Shown here: piece by piece, positions 12,626 to 39,715 of the stretch
Layout of the letters: each line of letters begins with the position of its first letter
Numbering within the stretch: the stretch's first letter is position 1
Origin: Azolla caroliniana
Taxonomy: Eukaryota; Plantae; Polypodiophyta
DNA: 64,000 nt
Reading direction: 5' to 3'
Assembly (NCBI GenBank): GCA_043228905.1
Contig: JBHGNT010000018.1
Coordinates: 1,240,001-1,304,000 of the forward strand
Made by a program: the position numbers and the translations under genes
The notes under the pieces: generated by a model
Seen by the model: the letters and a program-made list of their open reading frames with translations, nothing else
What the model was told of the DNA's origin: nothing
The model's database searches: none

Positions 12626-14546
12626 TGTTGTGACTCATGAGTAGGAGAGAGAGGGAGAGAGAGAGGGAGAGAGAGAAGACAAGAAATGGAAATGATCTTA
12701 TATTATGAGAAAACAAGGTTACAAAGAGTAGGCTAAGGGTTAAAAACTAGTGTTGAACCGAATGAGTTGTGATGAATGTATAGACACCTATTTATAGATC
12801 CTTATGGAGTATTCTAGAATGTTCTAGAATATTTTAGATATTTATGATAATAAATATAATCATGAAATATTCAAGAATGTTTTAGAATAATCTAAAATGT
12901 TCTAGAATATTCCAAATATCTTGTAATAGCTAAAAATATAATTATTATAACTCACATCATACATGTTATTACAATGGTTAAAGGTTCAACACATAGACCA
13001 AGAAGTTGTGGGTTCGACTCTAGATAAGCCAAAATGTATGTCTTCATGACATTATCCCCCCTCTTTGACAACGAGTTCCACGAGTAAGAAGACAAGAGTT
13101 CAGACTTGGTTTATGGGGATATTTGTTGTGAATGGGAGCAACTATGTCGGAGGCATTAACAAGATGCTCGGTAGGCTCCCATGTTTGATCATTAGGTGTA
13201 TAACCTAACCAATCAACCAAATAATATAGTTTGTAGCGGATGATCTTGGAGTCGAGAATGGCAACAACCTCATATTCAGAGCCATTGGAATCTTCAATTG
13301 GAGGTGGGGGTGGTGTAACACGACCCGAAATAGAGCTTGGTGTGTAGGGCTCCAAAAATGAAACATGGAAGACCGGGTGACGCATATGAGGAAGAAGATC
13401 AAGGAAAAATGTCATATCATTGATCTTACCAGAGATCACATATGGGCCGAAACATTGATAATCCAGTTTGTAGCAAGGTCGGGTGGTTTTACTGCTACCC
13501 TGTAAGAGCCATACCCGATCGCCTACTTGAAACGTAGTCGTTGAATCACGTTGATGACGGTCAACAACCTTCTTGTGAGTGGTTTGAGCATCACATAAAT
13601 GGTGCAAAAGTATATCCTGAACTTCTTGAAGTCGGGTGAGCCGATCTTCAGTAGCCGGGTTTGATGGAAGTTCGAGATGTTCAAGCATTGTCCAACGAGG
13701 ATGGTCCCCAATGTTTGCAAAAAATGGGGAATATCTAGTAGAAGAATGTTCGGAGTTGTTGTAAGCAAATTCTGCAAAATGTAATAGATCAACCCAATCA
13801 TCTTGTTGATAGTTGACAAAACAATGAAGATATTGTTCGACTATTTGGTTGGTGTGCTCACTCTGCCCATTAGTCTCTAGATGGTAGCTAGAAGAGAGTT
13901 TACAAGAAGTATGTAAGAGTTTGAACATGTGCCGCCAAAATTTTGAGATGAATTGGGGACCTCGATCACTGATAATATCATATGGAAGACCGTGATGGCA
14001 AAAGACCTCCCACATGAGTAAATCGACTATCTCTTGGCTAATAATGGTCTTCGTGCATGGAAGGAAATGCTCCATCTTTGTAAAACGATCTACTACCGTG
14101 AGAATAGAATCAAAACCCTTTGAAGGTGGAAGATATGTAATAAAGTCCAAGGAAATAGATTTCCATGGGCTCTCGAGAATAGGCATTGGCTGTAATAAGC
14201 CATATGGATGATGTCGAGGATTTTTTGATCAGCAACATGTATCACAACTACGAACATAATCCGTAACAAAATGGCGAGGTTATGGCCACCAATATCAGCG
14301 AGAAATCAATTCAAAAGTCTTGTGGATGCCGAAATGTCTAGCCATTGGTGTGTCATGACATTGTCGCATGACTTCGAGTCGAGAAGGACCGTTCGACACA
14401 TACAAGAGAGTTTGTCAAAAAAGTAAACCATCATGCCAACTGAACTTGGTGTAGTCTAGAGTCCAGACGAGGATTTTGAGATTGGGAGCTGGAAGCACGA
14501 TCTGGGATAATATGATTCAAAATCTTTTGTGCAAATGCATCGATTT
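12626..14546 (-). mobile_element. Ty3/gypsy chromovirus (Tcn1-like), 3' half: integrase plus chromodomain (ORF 14186-13044), PPT about 13052-13066, 3' LTR 13051-12626
   Basis: An HHCC zinc-binding remnant is followed by WKSISLDFI, VVDRFTKM, IISDRGPQF and a GPY motif, then a canonical chromodomain (EYEVVAIL..YYLVDWLGY..TWEP). The LTR reads TGTCATGA...CACAACA on the minus strand. Confidence 0.9.
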
Positions 14547-17021
14547 TGTGGAAGTTAATATGCAGAAGCGTATGGCAAACCAGCTCAACTGGATACCAAC
14601 AAAACATAGAGAAGAAGGTTTAATGGAGACCTTACACAGAGAATACACGGGAGAGACAGAGAGAGCAGAACATGAACTCGATTCAAAATGATAATACACT
14701 CTATACATAGAATGTGCTTAGAGAGCACTTTTATACAAGTCCATAAAGGACTGACAGGTACTTCAATGCTCATACAAGCGACTGGCACTGACTCCCAAAA
14801 CTATGGCTACGTACTAGGCTAGATCCGTACACCTCTAACGACCTACCGGTTTCAATCCGATTCGGCTCTTCGATCCGGATACCGATTCGGATCCAGTTGA
14901 CCTTGCTTGCTCAACTTGAGGTCGGATCGTAGTGTTAGTGTCTACATTAGCCGGTACTTTCCTCCGGCTCCTTCTGGCGTCCTCCCGCCTTGCTTGCGCT
15001 CCTTGGTCGGTCTGATTCCGCTTCTCGCGACCCATCTGGTTCTGCGCACCCTGACCTCCTTGGTCGGCTTGTCTGCTCAGCAGGCCCATCTCAGCTCCTT
15101 TGCTACTATGACTCTGACACTTGTTGACCCATTGGTTCCTCCATATCGGTGTCGACTTCCAATGCCTTCTCGTCCGCTTGGCCTTTAGTTTATCTGACTC
15201 CTCCGAATCAAATTGTTGAACCGAATCAGCTTCCTCCGATTCATTCCAACTCTTGTCCGTATCGGTTGCCTGCGATTCATTTCGGCTCTTGTCTAAGTTG
15301 GTAGTCTCCAACTCATCTTCTGTTTTCAAGCCCTTCACCACATCAGACCACGTCCGGGTCTTGGCCTTCTTCCGGTTGGCTCTGTCCTTCATGAGTCTGC
15401 TATTGTTGCCGCTTGCACCAACTTGTTCGGATGTACCGACTCCTTCGGTCGGCTCGAATTCCTTTTTCTGCTCATCTTCCCCCTTGGTTCTTACTTCCTT
15501 TCTAGCTCCGTGTCTGGTGCCATCCGTTCTCCCCCTCAAGTGCGGCACGCCAAGATGTTGTAGACCAAGCATCTCGAAAAGTGTTGCAACTTGTCCAATC
15601 CAAGCGGCTTGGTGAAGATATTGGCGACCTGCCGATCTGTGTGAACATACCGAAGTTCAACTTCACCACTCAGGCCTCGCTCACGGACAAAGTGATAATG
15701 CACTTCTATGTGCTTTGTTCGGGCATGGAATATAGGGTTCTTGGCAAGCTGTATACTGCTTACGTTGTCACAATAAATCAGGATCGGGGTCGGCACCTCA
15801 ATCTGGAGGTCGTGCAGTAGTCGCTGAAGCCAGATGGCTTCACAGGTGGCAACAGTAGCGCCCCAATATTCAGCCTCAGTGCTCGATAGAACCACTATTG
15901 GCTGCTTTTTGTTGCTCCATGCAACAGTCGTACTACCAAGAGAAAACATGTAACAGGAGGTGGATCGGTGATCCGATGCATCACCAACCGAGTCATCATC
16001 GGTATATCTGACTATACCGTGTTGGTATAACAATCCTCGGTCCTTCGTGCCACTCACATATCGCAATAGTCGATGCGCGCACTGAAGGTGCTCCGTTGTC
16101 GGGTTCTGCATAAACTGGTTGATCACTCCGACCGGATAACTAATGTCGGGTCGGGTGATTGTCAAGTAGATAAGGCTTCCAAAAATTTGTTGAAACCGTT
16201 TCTCATTGCAGGCCGGTTTGGAGTTGGGACGTAGCTTCAAGTTCCGGTCCAAGGGTGTGGAGATCGGTCGGCATTCTGTCATGTCGAACTTGTACAACAT
16301 ATTCAACGCATAATGGCGTTGTGAGAGCAATATACCGTTGGGGGTCCAGATCACCTCGATCCCAAGAAAATAATGAAGATCCCCCAGATCCTTCATTTCA
16401 AAAGCGTCTGAGGGACTTCACACGACCGATTTCATCGAGTCCGGGTCTGGTGATGACTATATCATTTACATATAGTAGGATACAAACCGGACCGTCCGGA
16501 CTTTTCTGGATGAACAGTGAAGAGTCAGAATTTGAGGCCACAAACCCCATCTTACATGACCGGTGCGTGATTTTCGCATTCCAAGCTCATGGGGCTTGCT
16601 TCATACCATAAAGTGACTTTTTGAGTCGGCACACCGCTGACCTATTCAACTCCGATTGAAAACCGGGGGGTTGGATCATATAGACCCGTTCTTGAAGAAA
16701 CACTTTTTTCACATCCATTTGGTTAAGATGCCATCCCCTTGCCACAACAGCAATCAATACCACACAGATCGTCTCGTCGTAGTCGATTTTGTGCATATCC
16801 CTTTCCCACTAACCGAGCCTTGTACCGGTTGACCGAACCATCGACATTGTACTTTACCTTGTACACCCACTTGCAACCAATCAGTTTACATTGTCGAGGA
16901 GGGTCAACTAGGTCGCAAGTGTCGTTGACATCGAGTGCCCACATTTCTTCTTCCATAGTAGCACAAACCGATTTGCGGCATTCGCTGCTTCTGCATAGCT
17001 CTCCGGCTCACGTACTTCCGT
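14547..17021 (-). mobile_element. Ty1/copia family A, 3' half (degenerate RT/RNase H, C-terminal extension, 3' LTR about 14914-14547), inserted in the gypsy integrase region
   Basis: Motifs CKWVYKVK, SLYGMKQAP, MKDLGDLHYFLG and [12 protein letters not shown] are present. The LTR is homologous to 21067-21488 and 40155-40510. Confidence 0.9.
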
Positions 17022-19472
17022 TGTCATGATATGGCAAGACTCGAACCCATGACCTTATGTTACATGGGTCGAGCTCTTACCATTAACCTATGTATTGTAA
17101 TACGAACGTTATTATTTTCATTTAAGTTTTACTATAGAAAATTGATCTATATTCCAGATTTCTCTGGAACATTGTAGAAACTTCAGGAGTACTCCTGAGA
17201 ACACTATAAAAGGAGGCACAAGGCATTATTTCAAACCAAATCGGTTCAACGCCAGTCTTAAGCCTCCTAACTACTATTGTATATTCCCTTAACATAATAT
17301 ATCTTTTGTTATTCTCATTCTCTCTCTCTCACTCACTCTTTCCTTCCCTTGAGAGTTCTACACCTCCCTTAGTACTAATCCTCATCTTTTAGTACTAATT
17401 CCTTCTCTGTCTTAGTACTATTCCTGACGGTTTGAACCGATTTTGGTCTCCTTCCTTCTCTTCATTTATCTTGTTACTTCTCCCTCCCTTCATACTAATC
17501 TCTTATTCCTCTTTTCTCTCATATTATGGCCACTGTTAGCGCTCAAGAATATCAATCCGTTTTTTCAGAGTTGCAATGCTTGAAAGAGAAGTTTCTCGCA
17601 TTGGAACAAGAAAATCAACGATTGTTGGGGGAGCTTCAACAAATCTCCTTAGAGAAGCAGCAGATACAACAACAACACAAGGAACTAGCGTTACCCGTGC
17701 AATAGCTCGAAGCAACCATAGTAGCAATGCAACAACAAGGACCTAGTACGCAAGGGGTTCATAAAGAACCCAAGATCAACCTTCCCATGAAATTCGATGG
17801 AACGCGATCGTAGTTTAGAGGATTCCTTAATCAAGTACGATTAGTCATTCAAATGCATCCTTCTCGATATCCCACCGATGCATCACGAGTGGGACTAGTA
17901 GGCACTCTACTTAGTGGCACGACATTGGCATGGTTCACCCCCCTGTTAGAAAAAAGCTCTCCCTTGTTAAATAATTTTGAAGAGTTTATTACTGAGTTTA
18001 AAGCCTGTTTTGGAGATACCGATAGTGTTAGAACAACAATCAACAAAATCCGAAGATTGCGCCAAGGTGAGCGGCCGGCCTCGGCTTATGTTGTAGAATT
18101 CTGTCTTCTTGTCACTGATATTCCCTGGGATGACCAGGCAGTAATGGAGCAATTTCGTTTTGGCCTACGTAATGATGTTAAATATTTACTCTTAACTTTC
18201 CCTGAGGAGCCAAAGTCATTGACGGAAGCAATCAATTGTGCAATGCGATGTGATGCGATAATCGCCTCTTCGAACGACATTCGGAACGTCAATTTCAAAT
18301 GCCATGGACAAGATCGGAGCCCACCTACGTTTCAATTGTAGCAAAGCCTTTCCCAAGGGAGTCATTCAATATGTCTCCAACAAATACTCCGACTCCAATG
18401 GAAATCGACACGACACGTCGTCGTGGACCACTATCGGAAGAAGAAAAGCAGTGACACATGGCAAATCGATTATGTCTTTATTGCGGTGGACTAGGGCATA
18501 TTGCAATGAACTGCCCCCATCGGCTGAAAAGGCAGGTAAATCAAATAACTGCTAGTACTAATAGTACTAAACCCGAGTTTATTTCTCTAGGCGTGTCTGA
18601 TAGTCCTAATAGCCTAAGCCTTTCATACAAATTTGAAATCCTTAGTCAACTAGAAGAAGAGTTAAACGATTAAGTCCAGCCAAAATAGGAGTCGTTTGGT
18701 TGGACAACCCTAGATCTGTGCAGCCCATTAGTTGTTCCATTTCCTTTAAGCAAGTTAGCCATGTGTTCTTAGCTCAAGTAATGGTTAGTACTAAAAGTAC
18801 TCCTCCAGTACATGGCTTAACACTCTTAGATTCCAGAGCCAACTCTTGCTTCATGGATAGGAATTTTGCCCAAGCTCATCAGATATCCCTTAAAAAACTC
18901 CCGTGTCCAGCCTCTGTAGTACTCATTGATGGTCGTCCCACTGCTTCCGGAAATATTATAGAACAGTCTGAACCCGTTAATATTGTCCTAGATAACTTAG
19001 CGTGTGTAGTATCATTTAATATAATTAGTATCCCAGAACATCCCATTGTTTTAGGATTACCATGGTTCGAATTACATAACCCAACCATAGATTGGAGAAC
19101 AAGAGAAATACGGTGTCGACAAACCCGAGGATCTACTCATAAGATTGCAACCATTTCGCTACATCAATTGCGTGAGGAAGGATGCAAGGAAGAAACGTTT
19201 CTCTTCGCAATATCAGTAAACCCCTACAGTATCAACAAAGAGGAGTCCACCGTTCAACTTCCAGAGAAGTATTGTCATTATGCCGACGTGTTCGATAAAG
19301 TACAAGACAATACGCTTCCTCACCATCGACAGTATGATTGCCCCATTGATTTACAACCGGGAAAAGAGACACCATGGGGACCGATCTACAATTTGTCACC
19401 AACCGAGCTAGAAGTCCTTTGAACCTATATAGAGGAGAATTTGGCAAATGGTTTCATTCGACATTCAAAATC
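17022..19472 (+). mobile_element. Ty3/gypsy (Tcn1-like), 5' half: 5' LTR 17022 to about 17362, gag about 17526-18673 (disrupted), protease and RT start 18661-19472
   Basis: The LTR starts TGTCATGA and has a TATA box at 17205. Gag shows PKINLPMKFDG and a CCHC knuckle (CLYCGGLGHIAMNCP). Protease shows LLDSRANSCFMD and IVLGLPWF, followed by LPHHRQYDCPIDL and GPIYNLS. Confidence 0.88.
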
Positions 19473-21488
19473 TCTACCAGCATGGTATAACCTGTTGGGA
19501 GACAGGTTCCTCCGGATGGTGCAGACCCAGTTAGGAGTGCTCACCGGATGAAGAGACATATTCGTAAATATGTTTCCTAAGAGTCCATCGGGGCTATATT
19601 TGTAAATAGCCAGAAAGTCATATTAGTATAAATATGACTTAGGGCAAACTTATGGTAATGTTGTTATTCTTGTTTGCGCAAGATCAGAGTGTGTAACTGT
19701 GTACAGAGAGAGAGAGAGAGGAAGAGGTCGTTGCCTTTGTTGTAACCGCCGCCTGTGGCGAAGATAGAAAGCTCGAGGTTGTTGCCTCGGTGCTTTACTG
19801 TTGTACACTGTAACATAGTGATAGTTTGCAGCCTGTGGGCTGCCGTGGTTTTTCCCTAGTTTGGGTTTTCCACGTAAACATCCTGTGTACTCTTCTCTCA
19901 CTCTTGTGTCGTGCATTCATTCCCGTTTTCTGAGTTTGATCCTAGCTCGGTTGTGGCCGAGCGTTGTTCATAGGGGAGCGTATAGTTCCTGTCATAACCG
20001 AAGGACTAGTCGGATATACAGATGCTGACTGGCCCGATGATGCATCGGATCGCCGATCCACCTCTGGTTACATGTTTTCTCTAGGTAGCGCGGTTGTTGC
20101 GTGGAGCAGCAAAAAGCAGCCAACAGTGGCTCTGTCGAGCATTGAGGCTAAATACCGGGGCGCTACCAATGCCACCTGTGAAGCCATCTGGCTTCGGCGA
20201 CTACTACAAGACCTGCGGTTTGAGGTCCCGACCCCAATCCTGCTCTATTGTGACGACATGAGCAGCATTCAGCTTGCCAAGAACCCCGTGTTCCATGCTC
20301 GGATGAAGCACATAGAAGTCCACTATCACTTTGTGCGTGAGCGGTGAAGTAGAACTTCGGTATGTTCAGACGGATCGGCAAATTGCCGATATCTTCACCA
20401 AACCGCTCGGATCGGACAAATTGCAGCACTTCACTAAAATGCTTGGTGTTTAGCATCTCGACGTGCCGCACTTGAGGGGGAGAAAAGGAAAGGGAACGGA
20501 TGGCACTAGACAAGGAGTCGGAGAGGAAGAAAGAACCAACAAAGGGGGAGACAAGAGAAAAAGGAAGTCGACCCGACCGAAGGAGTCGGCACATCCGAAA
20601 AGGTCGGAACAAGTGGCCACGGCAAGAAGGACAGAGCCAATCAGAAGAAACAACCAAGACCCGAATTTGGTCCGGTGTGGTGAAGGGCCTGAAACCGGAA
20701 GACGAGTTGGAGAACACTGACTCGGACAGGAGTTGGAACAAATCGAAGGAAACCGATTCGGAGAAGCCAGATAAACTAAAGGCCAAGCGGACACAGACGC
20801 AGCGGAAGTCGACGCCAGCACGAAGGAACCGACAGGTCGACAAGCATCGGAGTCGTCGCAACGAGGGAGCTAAAATGGGCTTGTTGAGTAGACAAACCGA
20901 CTGAGGACATCAAGGTGCGCAGAACCAGAAGGGTCGCGGCAAACAAGACCGGACCGGACGAGGAACGCAAGCAAGGCGGAGCAATGCCAGAAGAAGTCGG
21001 GTAGAAGAATCAGTTGTCACGAACATTGACACCACGATTCGACCTAAAGTTGAGCTTGAGGGGGAGTGTTGAGCGAGCAAGCTCAACCGGATCCGGATTG
21101 GCTGAATAAGCCTGAGCCGGATCGGCATTTGGAAGGATGAGCCGGATTGGTATCCGGAAACAACCAACCAGATCGGAGAGCCGAATTCGAGCGGGAACCG
21201 GAAGCCTAGTAGTAGCCTAGACTACTAGGTAATCATTGTCTCGTAGTTAGTGTCAGTCGCACGTGTGAGAATTGAAGTACCTGTCAATCCTTTATGGACT
21301 TGTATAAATAGTGTTGTTTAGCACATTGTATGTACAGAGTTTTAAGGTTAATTTTTTAATATAGTTTTATGTTCTGCTCTCTCTGTCTCCTCTGTGTTTG
21401 AAGCTTTTCCATTAAACCTTCATCTCATTTTTTGTTGCTATCCGGCTGATCCGGTTCAATCTGACGCTTCCGCACATTAACATTCACA
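19473..21488 (+). mobile_element. Ty1/copia family A, 3' fragment (RNase H, extension, PPT 21055-21066, LTR 21067-21488)
   Basis: Motifs [20 protein letters not shown] and [12 protein letters not shown] are present. The LTR reads TGTTGAG...TTCACA after cttgagggggag. Confidence 0.9.
19493..19994 (+). mobile_element. Solo LTR inserted in the copia RT/RNase H junction
   Basis: TG...CA ends are flanked by a perfect 5-bp TSD TAACC (19488-19492 and 19995-19999). Removing it restores [12 protein letters not shown]. Confidence 0.9.
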
Positions 21489-22890
21489 ATCATGTTAATT
21501 GGTCTTTCCTCTCAAGTGTGATGTGGGGTTTGGTCCTCGTATGTGTCGACTTATCTTTTAGCTAGGGAAAAATGCAACCTCCCGTGTGATGTTTAATGGC
21601 GGAATCACTCCGAAAGTGTTTCTTACATGATTCGTGCGGCAAGGATGTCCACGAAGCTCATTGTTATTTGCTATTGGTACACATCCTTTGTTAGTAATGT
21701 TGTCAAATCTTGCGGCCAGTGGTGATATTGTGGGTTTGCATCTTCCTTCTGGTGGACAATTGGTGGCACAAGCATTGGCAGATGATTCTTTTATGTTTTT
21801 ACAAGCCTCAAAAGAAAATCTTAAAAGGAGTATGCAAGTTTGGAATCAATTTGCTTTGGCTTCAGGGTTGTATATAAATTGGAGGAAGTCTCGCCTTATT
21901 TCTTGTACGGAGAGTGATTTGGAATGTTTGGGATGGCGAGGGTCAGTGATTACTCGAGCTTCAATTTATCGACATTTGGGTTATCCATTGGGCATTCATG
22001 TTACAAATATTCAATTGATTGATTGGATTGGTAGTAAATTGAGGGACAAATTTATGTATTGGAAGTCTCAATTATGGCCCTTTCATGTACGACTCAAAGT
22101 GGTGCAATGTATATTGATACCCATGTTTTTATATTTTTTGCCTTTACTTCCTTGGACTAAGAAGGCATTACAAAGCATGTTACAACCTATTTGGTTCATG
22201 TTGTGGTAGAAGGGAGAAATGATGGGAGTTACATGGATTTCAAGGGACCATTTGGCTACTCCTAAAAGGTTAGGTGGTGCAGCAATATTGGATTTGGGAA
22301 GACATTTGATGGCTTGTAGATTTACATTATTACGAGATATAGGTCAACAAGATCAACCACGGATATTTATGATGCAATATTAAATTGAGCATGAAGGATT
22401 GGTGCATGGGAATACAAAGATTCAAGCATCATGGTGGTCACTACTGAATGGAAGTATTCCTCTAAAGATTCGACATTCTGTATGTGGACAACATTTGGTA
22501 AGATTGTGACAAGATGCATTATCTCTTTTTGAATGGGGACCATCAAGTGATCGAGAATATTGTAATTCATTACAAAACAAATTGCTTGTTTCTTCTCGAG
22601 TGTTGTTTTGGCATGGGAAAGAGAAGTTGAGATCTCAATTCAATCGTTTATTTCGATTGGGGATTGTACCTTTGGAAGATGTGGTTGATATGAATCTCAA
22701 CGGTTGTCAGATTTTGAAGATGCCAAGAGATGGTTATGTATTCCCCCAAATTATGGATTTATTTGGGAGAAATTACATGATATACCATTGTTGCAAGGAT
22801 GTTTGCCATTGAAAACCAATTTTGCACCTTGGGTAGATTGGCGGTTACAAGATGGTACACGCTTGTTACAGGTCACTACAAATATATTGT
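21489..22890 (+). mobile_element. Degenerate L1-type LINE RT fragment
   Basis: Motifs DHVNWSFL, RQGCPRSSLLF, ALADDSFMF, SGLYINWRKS, YRHLGYPLG and PKRLGG are present. Confidence 0.85.
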
Positions 22891-22964
22891 ATCTAAGAGG
22901 GGACTAAGAAGTGTTTTAACTAAGTGGATTTTACATACAATTAATATATATTGTGTGCTTTTAC

Positions 22965-23004
<40 letters not shown>

Positions 23005-23850
23005 TGCTGCATAGTAGAAAGTGGAAGACGAAGACCTGTTGTTGTCGCATGTGTGTGTCGTTCAGCCCTGAGCCTACACAGTGCATACCTCCATCCTTCA
23101 ACTTTTCAAGTAAGATTCACAATGCACATATATGATATAGTCAATTACTTTACCTCATACATTACCCACAATGTAATAAGTCATGATTAGAGTAGGACAT
23201 TTATATTGTTGGAAAAGATAGGATGAGCTTTTAATACAAAGGAAGAACTAACAATAATATACATAAAGGTAGGTTTTTACTAGCAACATGAGCTTGACAT
23301 ATTCATATGCAACCCAGTAAAACTAATAATCCATAATGGATTTTAAGTTAACTTTTTCATATAACAACATTTTATTGTCACACACACAGACACAAACACC
23401 CACCATTATCTCTTTTGCTGAATAACTCAATTAACACATACACGCACTAAGAACCATATGATCAAATGAAAAGAAGTAAATGAATATTGAAAATGACCTT
23501 CGAAGGCCAATCATTGTTAGAAGATAGTATGAGCTACAAATCGGTACTTTATTCTCCTAAAAGTTGTATAATGCTCTCTCCCATTTTCATATTATTTGGA
23601 AGTAATTGATTATCAAATTGTGGGTAATGTAATAAGTTACCTCGAATATACTATACTTTTCATTTTGGTGATGTAGGAACTTCCTACATTACCAAAATGT
23701 AGATGCTTACAAATGGGGCTTACACATGTAGTGTATGGATGGATGTAGTTGCTTGCATGTAGGTATGTACTTGTATCAGCCCCTAGAGGCAAAACAATAT
23801 CTTTTATGACCAAAATTTTATTTTATTTTGGTTATAGGTACATACATTTA

Positions 23851-26418: not shown

Positions 26419-27596
26419 CATGGGCCATAAAACGATAAAAGCACATTTTTCAAAGCTCATGCGACCTTGCCAAAAGCTTGTTATCGTGGAAAAGCTCATC
26501 TCTAAATTAAGAAGCTTGTCTATTAATTGCTCACAAATGAGCATACCCCTCAATGAAAGATCATTCGTGCAATTTTACTTAAGCCACAATTGGAATGGAG
26601 CATGTGGAGACCAATCAAACCCAATTAGATCCTTTGGGTTCTAACACCTTTGAAGTGTTTGCTACAACATTCATGGATGGCATTTTCATTAGGCTTTCTT
26701 TCATGTGTATCATGTCCCTCTTATTTAAAGTGTAGAGTTTTGCCATTTCACATGCATGCACCTCATGTATGACTATGACATGATCCCTACAAGGGTCATC
26801 TACGAAAAATGCTATTTTGAAAGGGTAATTGGTGGCACAGGCTAGAGAATTGTTGGCCAAACTCCAACGACTCACCTTTGCTAGTTTGAGAATTTATTAT
26901 TCTTGTTTATGCTATTTATTGGAATACATGCTTAGGGGTAGATTTGGATCGCGTTGCAAAACAATGTCATGTTATGGTTGATACCATCCTTTCTTTATAA
27001 GAGATCATTTTCATGCATAGATAAGCTGGGTTATTCTAGGTACTAACCTGTGCAAACAACATCACAAACAAATGCATTTGCGTGGACTTTCTTGTTATAT
27101 AATTATGCAACTATGTTTTAGGTACTACACAATATTTGTTATGTGATTACTAGCATTGCATATGATAAAGCTAGTTGCATAAGTTATATGCTTTTGGGAA
27201 TTCCTTGTGCAAATTGTCAAAGCTCAACTCAAATGACAAGCACCATATGGGACCCTAAACATGGGTTCTTCCATTTGATTACTTCTAATATCCACAAATG
27301 TATTGACTTTTACTTGGTTTTATTTCAAGATTTATATGAAATAAAGTTGGTCCGCACAAAATGTATGCTTTTGGGAGTTCCTTGTGCAAATTGTCTGATG
27401 TCAATTTAAATGGTAATAAGAACCTTTAAAATGGATGCTCCCATGCAATTTCTTCTAGATTTGTCATTGTATCATTTCTTTACACGTTGATCCACAAAGG
27501 CATTGACTTTCACTTTGTTTTCTTTCAAGAACCATATGAAACAAAGTTGGTTAAACAAATCATATACCTTTGGGAGCTCCTTGCACAAAAATCTAA

Positions 27597-29170
27597 GAGC
27601 TCCGTTTAAATGATAAACATTGTATGTGAACTTAAACATGGATGCTTCCATGTCATTTCCTCGAGATCAGTCAGTGTATTGTTTCCGTACACCAAAATGC
27701 TTCTAGGTGTACCTTCTGCAACTTGTTAAAACTCAACTTAAATGATAAGCATCATATGTGTTCCGTACACCAACATCCACGGAAGTGTTGACTTTTACTT
27801 TGTTTTCTTTCGAGGAGCATATGAAGTTGAATATCCTTCAAGTACAATCAATTGACTTGTTGAAATGTTTGTTTGCAAAATTAGCAAAAACACATTATGG
27901 GCAATACTTGTCATTGGCTTTATAGTTGTGCATGTTAATACATATATATCTCTAAAATTAATATCATAAAGTAAAATCCAATGTTGTTTTCAAGAACTAT
28001 GTTTTTATACTTGTATATAATTTGTGGTTTTTAATAATTTCATAGCAAATTGGTTATTCTATCAACATTCATAACTATCAATGTTTGCAAAGCACTAGTT
28101 TACCTCGAGACATTGTATGTGAACTTAAATTGGTTAAGCTCGGCCTAAATGATAAACATTGTATGTGAACTTAAACATGGATGCTTCCATGTCATTTCCT
28201 CGAGATCCGTTAGTGTATTGTTTCCGTACACCAATATGCTTCTAGGTGTACCTTCTGCAAATTGTTAAAACTCAACTTAAATTATAAGCATCGTATGTGT
28301 TCCGTACACTAACATCCACGAAAGTCTTGACTTTCATTTGTTTTCTTTCAAGGAGCATATAAAGTTGAATATCCTTCAAGTACAATCAATTGACTTTGTT
28401 GAAATGTTTGTTTGCAAAATTAGCAAAAACACATTATGGGCAATACTCATTGGCTTTACAGTTGTGCATGTGCATTGTGAATATATCTCTAAAATTAATA
28501 TCATATAGTCAAAAGCCAATGTTGTTTTCAAGAACTATGTTTTTATACTTGTATATAATTTGTGGTTTTTAATAATTTCATAGCAAATTGGGTAATCTAT
28601 CAACATTCATAACTATCAATGTTTGCAAAGCTCCGGTTTACCTCGAGACATTGTATGTGAACTTAAATTGGTTAAGCTCAACTTAAATGATAAACATTGT
28701 ATGTGAACATAAACATGGATGCTTCCATGTCATTTCCTCGAGATCTGTCAGTGTCTTGTTTCCGTACACCAATATGCTTCTAGATGTACCTTCTGCAAAT
28801 CGTTAAAATTCGGCTTAAATTATAAGCATCGTATGTGTTCCGTACTCTAACATCCACGAAAGTGTTGACTTTCATTTGTTTTCTTTCGAGGAGCATATAA
28901 AGTTGAATATCCTTCGAGTAGAATCAATTGACTTTGTTGAAATGTTTGTTTGCAAAATTAGCAAAAACACATTATGGGCAATCCTCATTGGCTTTACAGT
29001 TGTGCATGTGAATATATCTCTAAAAATTAATATCATAAATTTAAAAGCCAATGTTGTTTTCAAGAACTATGTTTTTATACTTGTATATAATTTGTGGTTT
29101 TTAATAGTTTCATAACAAGTTGGTTATTCAATCAACATTCATAACTATCAACGTTTGCAAAGCTCCGGTT
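27597..29170. repeat. Tandem repeat, about 3 copies of about 540 bp, preceded by older degenerate sub-repeats (about 27140-27600)
   Basis: taaatgataaacattgtatgtgaac recurs at about 27606, 28146 and 28684. Confidence 0.9.
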
Positions 29171-31267
29171 TTAATGGTAGTAGAACTCCTTGATCACGAT
29201 AGGTTCTTTTGAGCTTCAAACATTTTAAGCCCAAAGTCTTAAAACAATAGAAGCATTTGTACGACTTTGCCCATCAACCAAAAACGAACTCTGTTATCCT
29301 ACGGAAATATATTCCTTAGGATTCAGAATGACACACACTTCATTGTACTAAAAAAGACAAGTTCAACAAGGATTATCAAATGCCTTGCAATAATTTTGTT
29401 AGACATATTATGGCAATGCAAATCGATGCAATGTAACATCACTCAATGTTTCAATTTTCCAAGTCAATAATGCTTACTTTGTTTGTTGTTATGAAAGAAA
29501 CAACATTTTTGTAGGAAATATGACATTTTTTAAGCCTTTCGCTTGACAATTGTCAGGAAAATCACATTTTCACTGTATATGACATGATTTGCATGATCTT
29601 TTTCGTCCACTATATTTGTATGCATATTATAAAGGGAGTGTTGTGGCTCGTACGGAAGTACATGATCTTACCTTAATAGTGATAGATATATTCCATAAAT
29701 TTAGAATATAAAATTCCCTAGGCTAAAATTTTCAACATCATGCACCCTTGTTTCCATGTTAATTTTGTTTCCACATTAATATTGTACGATATTTAACATA
29801 TTTTATGAACTAGTTTCTCCCATGAATTAAAATGCACGAATGTAGGTTCATCAAAAGATCATGTGACATACGATGTATGTGAGTACTTCCACTTCTTCTC
29901 TTTATACACATTATATAGCTTTTTGGGTTGCTATGTAAACATGATCATGAATCATGAGAGAAGTACGATTGCCCACAATTTCCTAAGATGGTTGATGAAC
30001 ATGCTTTCAAAACATATGTTGCACCAAAAACAAAATTTATATCCTAATCATACATCACTTTTTCACGAAAGTAATGCATAATGGCCGAAGTTTGTTAAAA
30101 GATAAGAAATTTGTCACAAATTTGGATCTAAAAAGTACAAAGTGGTACATTACCCCACAAATCTAAAAGCATTTTTGCTTCGCTTACAAGCACCAAACCA
30201 CTTTGTAATTGTTTATATACGATTGCAAAAAGAGCAAATCTAACGATACACTATCATAATTTCCTCATGATAGTTATGGCTTGTATTTGGGGATTATTTA
30301 TTTTGGTGTAAATCATGAGAAATCCCCACATTTTTACATTGGATTTTAGTAGAAATTATTGCATGAAGATCTTCAACAAGAAGTTCGAATATTTGATACC
30401 ACTTTTTCCTGAACACTGAGTGTGGAATGAATATATGCTAGGTTCCCCTACATAGTGTACGTGTACCTAACAACAAATATAAAGAAACAATTACCACCTA
30501 CAATGCTACACTTCATAATAACATTGATACTTCTCAATTTCACAAAATATGTAAAACCGGTTCATAATGTTGGAATATAAGATTTATACTATATCAAGCA
30601 AGTCATGTTTTGCATCGTCGCCTACATTTCCCTTCCACATAAGATGATCGTCATGATTCATATAATCCAATTATATGTGTATTGCATATGTCTTTATTTG
30701 TTTTCATATGATTAAGTACATACTTGAAAACCTAAATGCTCGTATTATTAGTTATCTATCAATTAGAGAAGAGAAACCATAGACTCACCAATGCTTTGTT
30801 ATTTTGTGTTCTGACTATAGAATTTAGACTATCGTTATTAGGAACTTAGAATTTCATTATTGCATTCTTAGTGGTGTTCCCATTAAGGTAATGTGTCCTT
30901 AGCCTAAAGATATTATACATAGCTTCTGCTTCACTTGGGTTTCATCTTATGGTTCACTTAATATCAAGTATTTACTATTTTACTTATTAATGTTGAAGTA
31001 TTATCACACTTGATCTCATTAAATTGTTTTGAGAGATGACTTAACTTGATCGATTCATGTTCCCTCTTTTATTAGTGATTCACTAGTGTTATCATCACTA
31101 AGGATAAGCCTCTCAAGGGGTTCCGATCAAAACACTTTCCTAAATATATGAGCATTATATAGATCCACCATGCTTGAAATATGAGAAGACTAGGGTCAGA
31201 AAACTCTCCATGAAGTGAATTGTATATTATCATATCTATATAAATTTATACATACAACATCATTGCC

Positions 31268-33361
31268 TTAGAACCCAAAATCGCTTTTTTCCATCTCAAG
31301 GAGAAGGGAATTGGAGGACATCTGAAACGGCATCGGCACCTCGGGGGGAGATAAGCTCCTAATGAGAGCCCAATTGATGCCTTTGAAGAAAGGATGTTGC
31401 TTTATCTCCGATGCTCCGCGTGTGTATCCAAGCCTCTTCTCGGGATCTTTTACGAGCAAACGTCGAATAAGATCTCTCGCAGCCAAACTCGAATTGTGTA
31501 TCTCGGGAAACTGAAGCGGTTTCCCAAGGATATTCAACAAAGTGGCTTTGTTGTCTTGTCCTTTGAATGGGGTGGTCCCATAGAGAAGCTCATAGAGAAG
31601 GATGCCAAAGGTCCACCAATCCACGGCACTCCCATGCCCTTCTCCGATAATAATCTCGGGCGCGATATATTCATAAGTTCCAACAAAAGACATCGATTTG
31701 GTCCCCGTTGGCTCAATGAAGACCTCAGGCAAAGGAGCCACTTGATTACCGGGTTCATTCTTCCTTAGCCTCGACTTTGCGGATCTCAATAGCATTTTTG
31801 GAGAGAAACAAGAAGGTTGCATACATAGGGGATACTTGTCTTGAGAGGCATCTGGTTCTACCATGGATGGGGTACTAGAGTGAACTGAACACGATTTCAA
31901 CAATGTCGGTTTTACCGCACATTGCAAGGAGAGGTCAAAATCGGAGAGCATGATGTGCCCATCTTCTCTGATGAGAATGTTTTCGGGCTTTAAATCTCGG
32001 TAAATCACGCCCTTCATGTGTAAATACTCGAGCGAAAGGAGTACTTCCGCTGCGTAAAACCTGCGCATGGGGCAAATTAAGATGGTCATGTTTGAGACAA
32101 TATGGTTTATTTTAATCATATATATTCAAATTGGCACGGGGTTAATGAAAATTTACATGAAGCAATGATAGATGGGGGAAATAGCATTCAATATGCATTA
32201 GGCATGATGATGATTATGACACATGAGTGAGATGTATGGGTTGAAATGATCATAATTCCACATGCCCATGCTTCTTCATATAGAGGATTCATATGATAAG
32301 AGCCTCATGGCTAATGGTTTGGGTGGGGCAGTGGGCCATGATTCATTCAGGGTGTGCGCATAACGCAATGCACACAATGGATGCATCGAATCGAAATAGG
32401 ATGTATGTATGGTATGGTATGTATGTACGACATTCATGCGAAAATACGAAAGTATGTATGCATGTTTGATCAAGAATTTGCAATGTAAATTACTGGGGTC
32501 ATTGAGAAAATCCCTACTTTGCATCGCAAATTTTCGATCAAGCATGCATACATACTTTCATATATACATATATACACGCGCATGAATGTCGTACATACAT
32601 ACATACATAACATACATATATACACATGAATGTCATACATATATACATGGCGCTATGACCTCGAAGAATTCTTACCTTGTGGCGGATTCGGAGAAATGCT
32701 TGCAAGGTTGTTTCTGCCTAAGTGCATGAAGGTCTCCGCCAGCGCAAAACTCGATGACCAGGCATGCGAATCTATCCGTCTCGAAATCCGCGTAAAGTGT
32801 CGGCAAAAATGGGTGGTCGAGCGTCCGCAGGATGTCCCGCTCCGTGTGGACACGCTGGACCTTCTTCCGAGTCTCCAAGAGCTCCTTGTCCATCATCTTC
32901 ATAGCAAACCAACACTTGCTATGCTTACTCATCTCACTCTGATTAAAATTAGGTAATGGCCCCTTGAGCTCCACAAGATACACACTTCCAATGTCGCCAT
33001 ACCCGAGTTTCTTCAGGGGTGTGAAATTCTGTAACCCTAACCCTGACTGGCCTAAGCCAGCCAACCGGATCGCTTCGCTGCATTCGGGATTCTTTCCATA
33101 GCTTATCATCGGATCACGGTCGTTAGCTTCGTCGCGATTCCCGCGGGCCCTGTGATCGTTCTTGCTGGGTCTGGTTGATCTAGACCTTCTTAAATCCATG
33201 GTTTTGGAAGGGTTCTTGTGTCTGTGAGGGGAAGCCATGATGGAAACAGGGTGTGGAGCGGTGCTCTTGGATCTGAGGAGCACTGGGGAGGATTTGAGGC
33301 GATGGTTGGATGATTTTAAAGCCTGAGCGCTGTGGGGTTCCGGATTGATCTGGTCCATCAT
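31268..33361 (-). CDS. AGCVIII protein kinase (D6PK/KIPK-like), about 492 aa. Exons 33361-32676 and 32060-31268.
   Basis: [16 protein letters not shown] and [10 protein letters not shown] are followed by a spliced ATR|FYAAE junction and YRDLKPEN. The AGCVIII-specific DFD, an insert with CMQPSC and a basic patch, and [12 protein letters not shown] are all present. Confidence 0.93.
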
Positions 33362-33917
33362 ACTTTGGATGACTTCTGTTCCAAGTCTTTTGAAAAAAGA
33401 AAGAAAAGGGAAGGATTGGATTGGATTGGATTGGGCGTGAAGTTTCAGGATTATGTCAATTTCAAAAGGAGGAAGGAAGAAGAATGGATGGATGGATGGA
33501 TGGACTGTGTGTGTGTGTGTTTATTTTAGGGTTCCATGGAGAACTCGAAACCCCGATCAGAGAAATGCGGAGGAGATGATTGATTTGAATTCCTTCAATC
33601 TTCAGTCTTTTTATATATGTGTGGGATTTTGGATGGGGGATTGCCCTTCGTCTTTCTTCTCCTCCGTTTACTTCTTCTTTCTTTCTTTCCTTTCTTTCCT
33701 TTCTTTCTCTGTTTCTTTATGTTAATTAATGTGCCCATGTTTTTTTCATGCTCTTTTCTTCTTTTCTTTTTTTTCGCTTCACAAAAAGCAGGGCCTCCCC
33801 TCCCCCCCCCCCCCCCACACACACACACAAATTCACACACGTTTTGCAATGCTTTTTTTTCACACACGTTTTGCAATGCTTTTCTCCTTGCTCTCTGGCT
33901 TCTTGTCTCCCAGGGCA

Positions 33918-34145
33918 AACACTTCCTGCCTGGTCTTTGGCCGGCTTTGTCCCTTGACCCCCCAACTCCTCGTCCTGCCTCCTAATCAACAAACACTTCA
34001 TGCCTGGCCTTTGGCCGGCTTTGTCACTTGACCCTTGACTCCTCGTCCCGCCTCCTAATCAACAAACACTTCATGCCTGGCCTTTGGCCGGCTTTGTCAC
34101 TTGACCCTTGACTTGACCCTTGACTCCTCGTCCCGCCTCCTCATC
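33918..34145. repeat. Tandem repeat, 3 copies of 73 bp, upstream of the kinase
   Basis: aaacacttc(a/c)tgcctgg starts at 33918, 33991 and 34064. Confidence 0.9.
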
Positions 34146-35250
34146 ACTTGCCCCAGATTCGTCCCCCCCTCCCCTTACCAACCTTGCCTCATCTCTTGTC
34201 CTACATGTGTCCTCTTGGCCTCCGATGTCTGTCCGCACCACACTTCCTGTCCGTGCCACCCAACGGTTCAATTTCACATTACATACACCCCACCAACCTT
34301 CTGCCTCGATCACTTGCTCACCTCCTCGTTTAGACCGCTCTTTCAATGAATCTGTTTGCTCTCTCGCCACCCTGCCCTACCATGTCGTAATTCGCCTCCT
34401 GGTTTAGACCACTCTTTTGTTGACTCCATTTACTGCAATCAGTTGGATCTCCCATTCTTCTAATCGGTTCTAGCTACATTTTGTCGTACTATCATTCATC
34501 CGTCACCCACACCTACATGCGATTCGTTTCACCTTCTCTTCATTCATCCAATAAGCAATGAAATGTGGGCCATTCATCCAGCTGGTTCTAGCTACATTTT
34601 GTCATGTCATTCATCCATCGCCCACACTTACATGCGAATCATTTCACCTTCTCTTCATTCATACTATACGTTATTGGCTTGTTCATTAAGTTGTTCCGGA
34701 CTACACTTTTTCTACTTCTTTATTGACTTGTAGAGTTGTTCTCTCTCTTCTTCTTTCATGTTATACTCTTTACTTCGTTCTTTGTGTAGTTGGTCCACAC
34801 TACACTGTGAGATTGTTTGTCCACCTCCACATTAACCTACTTTCCTAATCATTCACCCTAGATTCAACTACATCATGCTAGGTTCTTTGTCCACATGATT
34901 TCAACTATACTTTGCCATATTGTTTTCCACCTTCATGCCAACTTGTGAAGTCACATGTGTGTGTATATATGGCTACCTTTATCACACCATTACCCATCTC
35001 CCATCTTGTTAACATTGTTCACGGTTTTTTGTTTTGCTAAAATTTCAAGTTCCCCTTTTACGTACTTATAATAATAGAAAATCACAAAAAAAGACAAACA
35101 ATTTACAAGCAAAAAAAAAATGCATTCATGATGGATATTTCCCTTTTAGGTATAGTTCTCTCGCAAGTTAAAAATGTGGGAATGCGAGCACCTTTTCATT
35201 AGACATTACAACATATGTACTTGAAATTGCACGTGTAGATCCATATAGAT

Positions 35251-35380
35251 GTGTGCTATGATATTAGCCACTATCCCAAAAAGTTTGTTAGCCATTTGAA
35301 CATCTACCTTTCTCGTGTGCTATGATATTAGCCACTATCCAAAAAAGTTTGTTAGCCATTTGAACATCTACCTTTCTCGT
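35251..35380. repeat. Tandem duplication, 2 copies of 64 bp
   Basis: gtgtgctatgatattagccactatcc...ctacctttctc occurs at 35251 and 35315. Confidence 0.9.
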
Positions 35381-38267
35381 TATATGGATTAAATCTTTGG
35401 AACGATCCAACTCATACGCCAAACCTCACCTTCTTGTTGACTAGTACAACCTCGAAAAGAAAATGAGTCACTTTTGAAAGATAATCTCCATTGCAAACAA
35501 GTGAGGTAAGCATTTTGCTAGTTGGTTCATTCAATGATCTTACTCTATTCATATATTCCATATCTATGTATACTTTCCATGTGGTATTGTTGACTTTGTT
35601 CATTCAGAAATGGTTTTGACATGTTGCACCGAGTTATGTGTGGTGTTCAGCCCCTTTTCTGCGTGATGTACACAAATTTGTCATATCATATAGATGGCAT
35701 TGCACATGGCATCTTGTGTTTAGTGTAGCCTTTTTGACGATTGATCACACCTCACATTCCCCGTGTGATTGAAATATGTTTGAGTTTACAAAAAAGGCAC
35801 GTACTCGACTTTTGTTGTTTTCTCCTATTTTTCCCACATTTGTCTTCTTTATATTTTTGTAGGGAGGACAATTCCAACTTTTCACATTTATTGATTAAAC
35901 TTAGCTAAAGTGGGCACCCCAAGTCATTGTTCATTTATTATATAAACTCGTCATTGATGACATCCTCCATATTGATCAATTACAACTCATGTCCATTTAT
36001 CTCATAGCTTTGTCACTAATGGCATTGCCCCTTATATTAAAAACTCAAAAATGTCAAAGCATTAACTTAACTAGAGGGCTCATGCAAGACTACCTCAACA
36101 TAGTGTTATTAGTGTCAACAATTGCCTTTGTAAAACCTTGTTCTTTGGAGCAATTTGTTACTATGCAATGATCTCAAACAAAACCTACAAGGAATTAATG
36201 TTACACCAAACCCACCGTGCAAAGGTTGATTGGATAAACCACACCATCATGTTTACATGCTAGAATGTTGAGATTCGAAACTAATAAGTTCACAATTTCA
36301 GTAACATAGTATTTTTGTAGATCTGATTGGTGGGGATGTTTCAAGTGTCATATGAGATGTATGCATACATGCAACAATTTCACATTGTGCTTTAGCATGT
36401 AAAGTTTGTTAACTTTGAAAATTGTAAAACACTAAGTATTCTACGTAACAAGGTCAAATAAATCGACCAATTCACATTTGACAATGAAGTCCTTGCAACC
36501 TTTTGTATTTGGATTTGAATCCAATAGATAGGATAAAATATTCGAGGACTCATTGAAACATTTGGTCTACCTTGAGCAAATCAAGAGTTTGATTCTCCTT
36601 AAATTGGTTAATCTCATAGCCTTGAGTTGAACTTCATACATAAAAATGAACGGTCACGACCACAATAAAAATTGGAACCAATTCAATTACATATGGTGTT
36701 TGGATACAACCAAGTTATTAGAGTAAGTATATTGTTTGGACGCGACCAACATAAAACATAAGGAAGCAATTCAGTATGTGCGGTGTTCAAATATAATATC
36801 TATCTATCTATCTATATATACATAGCATAATTAGAAACACTTTATCATGATGTATATTTTAAGATGCCTTATATTTTTCTCTAAAATTATTTCGCCTTCT
36901 TCGACTAACACTACACACGGCTAGCTAGTTGATGAATGTCATGTCAACGTGTCATTCTCTCCTTAGAATTCTACATATAACTACAAACAAGTCAAATTAC
37001 TTGGCCCAAACCTTCTTTCCTACTCTATTTTTCTATGCTTTGCAAACTTATTTAATCAAAATAAAACTAATATGTCTAATACTAGATCAAACCCTTTGTT
37101 TTAACTAATAATATCCAACATAGACATTTTGTACTGTGGATCAATATCATGATTTTGCACGTGAGGTAAACCTTTCATAATAGGCAATACAAAATGTGGT
37201 AAAGTCGTGATGCAAAATGACAATAATCATTTGTAATATTTGAGCTTGATTGGGTTCTATTTGTTTGTGTCATTTGCGACATGTGTCCTTTCTTTTCTCG
37301 CCTCACATGTTGATGATTTTGTGCCACATTAGCATGGGTTCCCATTACAACACTCAAATCTTACGCAATCCTTTATTAGTCTTCAACCCACCTAGATGGG
37401 TATTGATATAACAATGCATATTTATTAATATGTTTTCTTGTGTTTGCTCCATATTTTTTTATACCCATGCCACCTTGGCATGGATTTCCTTTGGCCACTA
37501 GGCTTTAAATTTAGTAAAATACTAATTCTTCACAAAGTTCCTAAGATATTCTTATTTCCAAAACTTCTAGAATATCCCACATTTTTCAACACTCCAAGAA
37601 TTTATTTCTATTAATATTATAAGTTATCCAAAATTATCTGCCTTAGTGGTCTATGATGTCAGCATCAAAGTAATCATTTTAAGAGATTTGATGTTTGATG
37701 TGCACCATGGGCTTGGCCCACCCGCGTTGGGAGGACATCAATAGTCTATCTACCTATCCACCTCTCCCTACACAAAAGTTTACATGTTGGGTATATCCAT
37801 TTATCCATGAGCTTGGCCCACACATAGATCACAAACTCATCCAATAGGTCATATTCGAGGCGGATCCTAGAAATTTGTATATCTCAAGCATCCCATGCAA
37901 TGTGTTTTATTTGTTAGGATGCCTCACAATTGGCTAAATCAATTGATTAAGTAACGTGACACAAATAAAAAATGCTATTGAATAAATGTGTTTGGTAACT
38001 AAGGCACATATCTGAACCAATTAGTTGTGCACTACTTGATAAACACCAACACCAAAACCAACCTCAACGTGTTGAGATGGAAGGATTTGAATTCAATATG
38101 ATCAGTGAATCCAAGGGCTATATAGAGGAGAACTCTGAGAACCTTGACTTTTCGACTGATTGGCATCAAATTACTTTGTCAGGTGCGAGGGTCAGAGCAA
38201 CACAACTACTCGGTCGTGCTCTAACAATTAAAGTTATGAGTGGCAGGTGATGAGGAGTCAGGAACAA

Positions 38268-38326
<59 letters not shown>

Positions 38327-38457
38327 AAGATATATTAACGTCTTCTAAGGCCAAATTTGGCCCATGAGACAAATGGTTTACAAAAAATGGGAAATTTACC
38401 CATTCATCAAAAGTAAAAAATGAAAATAAGATAAAAAATAATTCTAAAAAAAAAACA

Positions 38458-39715
38458 TGTTCTACAATGAAAAGATGTTATACTAGGCCTAATTTCATTT
38501 CCATCCAAGTCTCTCGAAGAGAAGTAGGAGGTCAAAGGGTTGCGATGTGGATGTGGCCCGTGGTCCCAATGTAAAAAGTACCCCAACCATAGCTTCTAGT
38601 CGACGTAGCTTATGTTGTTATGAAGATTTTCGGCAATAGTGTGAAAATCCCATAAAACGTACGAAATCGAGTATGAATCATGTAGTACAATAATTGTGAA
38701 GATAACATTTTAAATAGATTTAATATCTAAGTACAAAATAATGGAGGTTTCGAATGCACTTTATTACACGAGAAACGGACAACTAAATGTCAAGATATGA
38801 GGGTATAAAGTTTGTAAAAGGAAAGGAGAAAATTGTGAGATATCCCACATAGGCACGACAAATACAGCTCTCATCATATATAAGGTGGAGCAAAAGATGT
38901 TATCTTTGTGTCTATGTGTGGAGCATAGAGAGTTCAAGGTAACTTGAACTAAGAGTGGAGGTGGGCTAGCTACTCGTAAAGGGTTTTGGCCAACCAAAAC
39001 CGGACCGACGATGGAGCCGGTGATCCGGAGGCATCCGACGGTGATCCGACGACGACAACGGTAACCGACGGCATCCGGCGAACCGGCGTCCGGCGACTAG
39101 ATAAATAAATATATAAATATATATACATATTTACATATACAAGGAGGGCAAGTAAGGATTTGAACCTTGCACCTCCAAGTTAGGAGTCAATTGGCTTACC
39201 ATTAAGCCATGCTATTTAGTTGAAATTATATTTCTATCATAGTACTTTTACATGTAAATTCTCATACATGAGAACTAAAATGAGTGACATAGTTATCATG
39301 CACCACATGTAATACATAAGCGCCAAATGGCAAACATGCAATTTATGCATGTCTTGTACCCTCACATGCATCATATGCATGAGAGCATCTATAAAAGAGG
39401 GAAGGGGGAGGAGAAAAAACACGATTTTTTATGAAAATTAAGAGGGAGAAATTCGTTATCAAATTGATCGTGTAACTTGTTTCTTAAATCTAAAAGTTCA
39501 ATCAATCTCTCTCAATCGTGTAATCTCAACTTCTCTCTTTCCCAATCTATCTTAAGTACTTTCTCGCCAAAGCTTGTATCGACTCTAAATCCTTCTGGTC
39601 TAGAACCCCAGCGGTTCCGCCTCACGATCCGCGCGTAGTGACGGATCTTCACGACAACGTTCCCTTATCTTCTTAATCTTTTCTACTCCACGTCGACTTG
39701 TTTTGAAGCCCAACA
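38458..39715 (+). mobile_element. Probable solo LTR or LTR-like insertion in the LINE 3'UTR
   Basis: It has TGTT...AACA ends and a TATA box at about 39390 followed by a CT-rich leader, and it interrupts the LINE 3' region. No canonical TSD flanks these ends, so the left boundary is uncertain. Confidence 0.5.

Follow-up and report, generated by a model that had tools for sequence, protein, structure and literature searches.

tRNA-type A/B-box modules in the long terminal repeats of two coding gypsy retrotransposon lineages of Azolla caroliniana

Three A/B-box modules and their host LTRs

We analysed a 64-kb window of Azolla caroliniana DNA (contig C18:1240001-1304000 of a 523-Mb genome), a nest of copia, gypsy and long interspersed nuclear element fragments plus one protein kinase gene. 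Three long terminal repeats (LTRs) of gypsy retrotransposons in this window, here called (a), (b) and (c), each carry a module consisting of an A box and a B box, the motifs of tRNA-type RNA polymerase III (Pol III) promoters (Table 1). A first-pass annotation of the sequence had placed these box pairs 43-44 nt apart, antisense to their LTRs and about 115-180 nt upstream of the TATA box. Our motif check agrees: the A-to-B spacing is 44 nt in (a) and 43 nt in both (b) and (c), all three pairs are antisense, and the distance from A box to TATA box is 170, 115 and 181 nt, respectively. The A box of (a) is degenerate, with T instead of G at its third position, and no tRNA was called within the window by ARAGORN (0) or Rfam. 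An A/B pattern derived from the three sites matched 3 times in the window and 0 times in each of 100 shuffles, a count that taken alone is circular because the pattern comes from those same sites. The genome-wide count, with its reversed-pattern control, is free of that circularity: 3,120 exact and 6,166 CpG-decay-tolerant matches were found, compared to 0 and 2 for the control.

LTRs (a) and (b) belong to Tcn1-like chromoviruses. They resemble Tcn1 in having a chromodomain integrase and a self-priming primer-binding site (PBS), which replaces the tRNA PBS in (a)- and (b)-type elements, and in an arrangement of RNA start (R) and PBS as in SM-Tcn1; in the parts of the sources drawn on here, the self-priming layout is described for Tcn1 (Neumann 2019, PMC6317226) and is also seen in SM-Tcn1 (PMC2864245). 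The Pfam domain Chromo was also found in another (a)-type element (locus L095), and integrases of (b)-type elements match the (a) query up to residue 416 at 55-62% identity. The three LTRs had been described as different and poorly alignable, which does not apply to (a) and (b): the two are homologous and can be aligned through the module, the U3 (3'-unique) repeats, the TATA box and R. They therefore share one ancestral module, acquired once, and three independent captures are rejected for this pair. The chromovirus label given earlier to all hosts fits (a) and (b), and not (c).

LTR (c) is a solo LTR of a non-chromovirus gypsy family, which encodes a DUF4100 gag and a pol without chromodomain (loci L096 and L098) and has a tRNA-type PBS, presumably of the tRNA-Trp type. 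Open reading frames at locus L097 were considered as part of this family and were rejected, as they belong to a nested element without module. Named protein relatives of the family come from the liverwort Riccia; together with the retrotransposon lineages present, they suggest a seedless land plant as host. We call the family Phygy-like by description, its relatives in a pol tree being Riccia-named or unnamed elements only; it is like Phygy, as far as the cited part of PMC6317226 describes it, in an NCGN target preference, a 4-bp target-site duplication (TSD), a compact structure and the lack of a chromodomain, and differs in its module, Phygy being described there with no mention of one. LTR (c) looks chimeric, judging by its two candidate TATA boxes on either side of the module, one homologous to that of module-bearing relatives and the other to that of a module-less relative. 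The empty site of the (c) insertion is present in contigs of run X4. The target itself (window 38458-38615 plus 39661-39715) is a repeat with TG...CA ends, and run X4 contains its uninterrupted form.

Of the LTR limits proposed earlier, those of (a) stand; (b) extends beyond the proposed end at 17362, and (c) is shorter than the proposed 38458-39715. First-look searches gave 1,408 candidate copies of LTR (a), 3,551 of (b) and 2,220 of (c), of which 40 were scored for each. The module-hosting elements encode gag, protease, reverse transcriptase (RT), RNase H and integrase domains, and their LTRs are spaced 3.5-5.3 kb apart in the retrieved elements and about 6.9 kb apart in full-length (c).

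Table 1. Modules, LTRs and associated features, in window positions (TATA boxes are Pol II, that is RNA polymerase II, TATA boxes; PPT, polypurine tract; ORF, open reading frame).
Feature	Position	Strand	Remark
A-box-like motif (a), degenerate	12967..12977	+	Antisense to LTR (a)
B box (a)	13011..13021	+	
LTR (a), 3' LTR of Tcn1-like chromovirus, 426 bp	12626..13051	-	Ends common to genome copies; preceded by PPT and integrase-chromodomain ORF
Predicted TATA box (a)	12791..12796	-	Invariant across Tcn1-like families
Predicted RNA start region (a)	12752..12762	-	Complementary to family PBS (self-priming)
PPT (a)	13052..13064	-	
Integrase of element (a), with SH3 and chromodomain	13044..14228	-	Pfam rve, SH3_Tf2-1, Chromo
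B box (b)	17037..17047	-	
A box (b)	17080..17090	-	
LTR (b), 5' LTR of Tcn1-like chromovirus, 408 bp	17022..17429	+	
Predicted TATA box (b)	17205..17211	+	
Predicted RNA start region (b)	17239..17250	+	PBS-complementary (self-priming); layout as in SM-Tcn1
Self-priming PBS (b)	17430..17442	+	
Broken gag and protease/RT start of element (b)	17733..19539	+	
B box (c)	39156..39166	-	CpG decayed to CpA in window copy
A box (c)	39199..39209	-	
LTR (c), solo LTR of Phygy-like non-chromovirus gypsy family, 1,041 bp	38616..39656	+	
Target duplication (c), 4 bp	38612-38615 and 39657-39660		NCGT type
Predicted TATA box (c)	39390..39396	+	Homologous to single TATA box of module-bearing relatives
Second candidate TATA box (c)	38877..38885	+	Homologous to that of a module-less relative; other side of module
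First T4 run past B box (c)	38994..39001	-	Possible Pol III terminator
Second A/B module (c), decayed relic	39457..39503	+	Sense; downstream of TATA box

Inheritance, distribution and orientation of the module

The module was present in all 30 of the closest copies of each family (best matches rather than a random draw, with the window copy included) and in both LTRs of six out of six whole elements. Its flanks are continuous with the LTR, and it has neither a TSD nor a tail of its own. The earlier proposal of a module that is built into U3 and inherited with it is thus borne out by the 30/30 copies and the 6/6 elements, and separate short interspersed nuclear element (SINE) insertions are ruled out by the same copies and their continuous flanks. 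Module (b) is also covered by contigs from the runs labelled organism A and organism C, and module (c) by those of organism C; each may be the window's own species.

A less biased sample was taken from 24 blocks of 50 kb at hand-chosen round positions, mostly mid-contig, in which 5' LTRs were located via their PBS. Among Tcn1-like 5' LTRs the module lay inside seven of eight; the eighth is cut by a nested insertion, and one of the seven is split by one. Among Phygy-like 5' LTRs it lay inside 10 of 19, one being cut and eight having no module. None of the 34 tRNA-Met-primed LTRs (mostly copia) and none of the ten Asp-primed gypsy LTRs of these blocks contained it. Tcn1-like LTRs were also collected from the blocks independently of the module, by anchoring on the TATA box and the self-priming site. 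Of the 22 LTRs found in this way, 17 had a recognisable 5' end; the B box was present in all 17 (in one with a single change), and the A box was deleted in two.

The blocks gave 59 module matches, of which seven were dropped (one spurious, three pieces of tRNA-Arg and three free repeats). Judged from termini, TATA box and PBS, 48 of the remaining 52 LTR modules are antisense in U3 and four are sense, so that the claim of a module that is always antisense and upstream of the TATA box holds at the three window sites and not genome-wide. Several Phygy-like LTRs have one or two antisense modules upstream of the TATA box and a sense module downstream of it, pointing outward. The sense relic in LTR (c) aligned to the sense module of a related LTR with a score of 45, compared to a maximum of 41 in 1,000 shuffles.

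Outside this genome, a by-eye inspection of the 440-bp SM-Tcn1 LTR as given in part of the source (supplement S3 of PMC2864245) revealed no A/B module, and there was no A/B match in 82 viral or metagenomic loci encoding an integrase related to that of (a) (35-55% identity); among these loci, 37 had a candidate PPT together with a candidate LTR start, doubtful in some cases. On comparison with SM-Tcn1 and these relatives, the module looks lineage-restricted. Searches for Phygy-like elements returned no viral loci and two genome contigs, both without LTRs. Two prokaryote assemblies (L388 and L389) have short contigs encoding Phygy-like pol, which are probably plant DNA contamination.

Conservation and origin

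Comparison of five distant Tcn1-like families (ten copies) gave an identity of 0.75 for the B box, 0.69 for the A box, 0.62 for the spacer and 1.00 for the TATA box, and of 0.51, 0.40 and 0.37 for three flanking stretches. Nine Phygy-like modules gave 0.81 for the B box, 0.68 for the A box, 0.47 and 0.59 for the spacer halves and 0.37 and 0.42 for the flanks, values in which detection favours the boxes. Between two of the Phygy-like families, blastn at E 1e-5 aligned nothing but the module. The module-bearing Phygy-like families have pol proteins that are only about 55-70% identical (to one reference) and LTRs that are otherwise almost unalignable. In a pol tree of 11 elements, these families occupy four branches, including the deepest among the sampled elements of the genome, and module-less families, including a young clade, are nested within them (some inner nodes have 49-64% support).

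Unlike the boxes, the tRNA fold has decayed. The anticodon stem of the modules forms on average 2.7 of 5 pairs compared to 2.8 in shuffles, and the T stem 3.5 pairs compared to 4.9 in tRNAs, indicating that the RNA fold is not what is kept. A functional tRNA is rejected, since ARAGORN called none, no Rfam tRNA match was found and the cloverleaf is not kept. From one family to another, then, the boxes survive better than their flanks and the cloverleaf is lost, a pattern that points to a DNA element under selection.

Spacers of Tcn1-like and Phygy-like modules have a mean identity of 0.37 (maximum 0.52 in 91 pairs), and modules compared to tRNAs give 0.36-0.38. As spacers of the two lineages resemble each other no more than they resemble tRNAs, a single module common to both kinds of LTR is not supported, and the module was likely gained at least twice from tRNA-derived repeats. 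Spacers were compared to ten tRNA types taken from 30 of the 62 listed genes, with identities of 0.41-0.58; the check for a donor tRNA yielded a weak lead for (c) only, whose spacer is nearest to tRNA-Arg(TCT) at 0.53. The genome also contains a free SINE-like element of about 200 bp, which is high-copy (2,415 first-look candidates), lies in (GA)n tracts (contig C10:7042860-7043060; L223-L247), lacks LTR termini and has a head resembling a tRNA and, at the 3' end, another tRNA-like module in inverted orientation. This repeat is not supported as direct donor, its spacer identity being at most 0.55.

Other tRNA-related sequences were observed in the genome. Genes for tRNA-Lys(TTT) with Asn(GTT) variants, tRNA-Ile(TAT) and tRNA-Arg(TCT) form tandem arrays (loci L101-L109 and L118-L120). 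Gypsy elements with a tRNA-Asp-type PBS have a sense tRNA-Arg 3' end in place of the PPT (C1:5038195-5048122, C11:10028439-10043766, C16:13034849-13044776 and others), which suggests that both of their strands are tRNA-primed. Three such copies have a longer, 46-nt piece of tRNA-Arg(TCT) adjoining the LTR (C2:12004232-12018033).

Possible function and relation to known systems

At each of the three window sites the module is oriented outward relative to the internal region; the TATA box is invariant. As the module faces away from 5-7 kb of coding sequence and the element has kept its TATA box, it would not serve as the element's own promoter. Taking the observed presence, inheritance, orientation and lineage distribution of the module together with the retention of the boxes between families and the loss of the cloverleaf, we tentatively favour, with somewhat less than even confidence, the reading that A/B boxes became fixed in Tcn1-like and Phygy-like LTRs and are kept by selection as a DNA site for TFIIIC that aids the Pol II promoter. 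A SINE or tRNA copy would have inserted into an ancestral LTR, and the module would have spread by normal copying of the LTR. Selection would then retain the boxes as a predicted TFIIIC binding site, and bound TFIIIC may help the adjoining Pol II promoter, as a boundary or by keeping chromatin open. A bolder version, which we regard as rather unlikely, is that two unrelated gypsy lineages independently co-opted tRNA promoters as TFIIIC docks beside or flanking their own Pol II promoter and thereby evade silencing via the Pol III machinery.

Several observations weigh against selection for a TFIIIC site. Eight of 18 informative Phygy-like 5' LTRs have no module, and these include an element with 100% identical LTRs; the module is therefore dispensable in that lineage. 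The expectation that the boxes would be better kept than flanking U3 holds between families only, as within families they are conserved no better than the entire LTR. Even between Tcn1-like families, the U3 TTCTAGAA zone has an identity of 0.65, about equal to that of the A box. The sense module of (c) is decayed, and it is deleted in seven of the 21 copies shown. The CpG of the B box is decayed in 11 of 29 copies of (a), 5 of 28 of (b) and 15 of 29 of (c), that is in 18-52%, and about half of the genome-wide A/B matches are CpG-decayed. Other CpGs are decayed in 26% (one site), 24% (six sites) and 9% (43 sites), respectively; in the count for (c), seven of the 15 decayed copies share the allele of the window copy, a retrieval bias, and the copies are not independent. 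Since the CpG of the B box decays no slower than other CpGs, most copies are not shielded from methylation, and the suggestion that the module protects its copies is not supported in that form. Any benefit would be restricted, given this heavy decay, to the few parent copies that go on to transpose. The B-box variants give evidence both ways. In favour of the proposed selection, among the first 100 matches listed, two families have only the TTCAA variant (8/8 and 6/6) and none has only TTTGA; we take TTCAA to match the B-box consensus and TTTGA not to. Against it, three LTR pairs in the sample have TTTGA in both LTRs, which suggests that their parents transposed with an already weakened B box.

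Alternatively, Pol III might actively transcribe the module as a gene, with an antisense product that has a role of its own, such as keeping down the copy number of the element or supplying small-RNA pathways. In its favour, the boxes are spaced as in a tRNA in every case. Of 30 copies of (c), 28 have a T4 run 143-171 nt beyond the B box, so that the RNA would be about 230 nt long, and 14 of 15 copies among the 3' LTRs of (b) have one at a distance of up to 54 nt, where the RNA would span the PPT. T4 runs are however common in such AT-rich DNA, neither (a) nor the 5' LTRs of (b), from which the RNA would enter random flank, show a consistent terminator, and the spacers vary so widely between families that there is no common Pol III product. 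We consider this explanation unlikely. A neutral relic is in our view also improbable: old insertions of SINEs or tRNA copies would have hitchhiked in LTR lineages without function. The free tRNA-derived repeats of the genome, the whole clades that lost the module and stayed active, the lack of excess conservation within families, the heavy CpG decay and a detection that favours intact boxes all agree with it. It accounts less well for boxes and spacing that persist across Phygy-like families as diverged as these are in pol, for the boxes of Tcn1-like LTRs found independently of the module, and for the antisense orientation of 48 of 52 modules in two lineages, although these represent only a few independent events.

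Pairing of the tRNA-complementary stretch in 3' U3 with a host tRNA, for strand transfer or packaging, is very unlikely: the antisense orientation is as required, and the position of the module immediately after the PPT in Tcn1-like elements and the tRNA-Arg(TCT) lead for (c) speak for it, but Tcn1-like elements self-prime without a tRNA primer site, (c) has a different PBS, the spacer identities to the ten tRNA types are too low for long pairing, and sense modules do not fit. Such pairing has reportedly been proposed for HIV-1 U3 and Ty3; our literature search found no paper on this precedent.

The closest described systems are Helenus and Cassandra, both TRIMs (miniature retrotransposons with terminal repeats), and they are the only cases of such LTR motifs named in the part of PMC13570524 cited here. 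As described in the cited parts of PMC10886601, Helenus elements (TRIMp3) have a tRNA-like sequence in both LTRs that is conserved around boxes A and B and is not a working tRNA, and its proposed origin is a SINE insertion into an LTR (Kojima 2024). They are non-coding and 311-1,263 bp long, the module is expected to drive their transcription, and Selaginella is the sole plant named. The modules described here likewise are tRNA-derived A/B boxes in both LTRs; they differ, to judge from sequence, in that the hosts are 5-7 kb gag-pol elements that have kept the TATA box, and in that the module is mostly antisense and would not drive the element. The same source argues that autonomous partners of TRIMp3 need Pol II and have no long LTR stretch in common with it, and notes a partial likeness to a tRNA in "not a few" Repbase LTRs, of which only TRIMs below 1 kb were followed (PMC10886601). 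Similar cases may therefore sit unexamined in Repbase. Cassandra is also a Pol III promoter captured into plant LTRs, but according to the cited parts of PMC10853983 and PMC10886601 its promoter is 5S-derived and replaces the Pol II promoter of a non-coding element; here the promoter is of tRNA type, the element is coding and the TATA box is retained. For the boundary function, the part of PMC8136502 cited reports TFIIIC sites and B2 SINEs as chromatin boundaries in mouse. B2 SINEs are likewise tRNA-derived mobile B-box DNA beside a Pol II promoter, but they are free insertions that act on host genes in mouse, not modules within a retrotransposon's own LTR, and not in plants. Our searches of the open-access literature turned up no account of coding Tcn1 or Phygy elements whose LTRs contain tRNA A/B modules.

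The LTR Pol III promoters described so far thus belong to tiny non-coding elements, in which they take the place of the Pol II promoter or are expected to do so. Boxes in coding, TATA-retaining elements of two lineages need another explanation. If the proposed TFIIIC function is true, autonomous plant retrotransposons would have made an anti-silencing device from a housekeeping promoter. This one genome has closely related families that bear the module and others that lack it, so that whether TFIIIC sites act as boundaries in plants can be tested directly. The intact box pairs, more than 6,000 in number, could draw on TFIIIC, and they could mislead tRNA and SINE annotation in such genomes.

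The remainder of the window includes the protein kinase gene, which has two exons (31268-33520, minus strand) and an intron with a long hairpin-forming stretch at about 32418-32601. A young copia element with 99% identical LTRs (43470-49003, minus strand) is nested in an older copia (40155-51413, plus strand).

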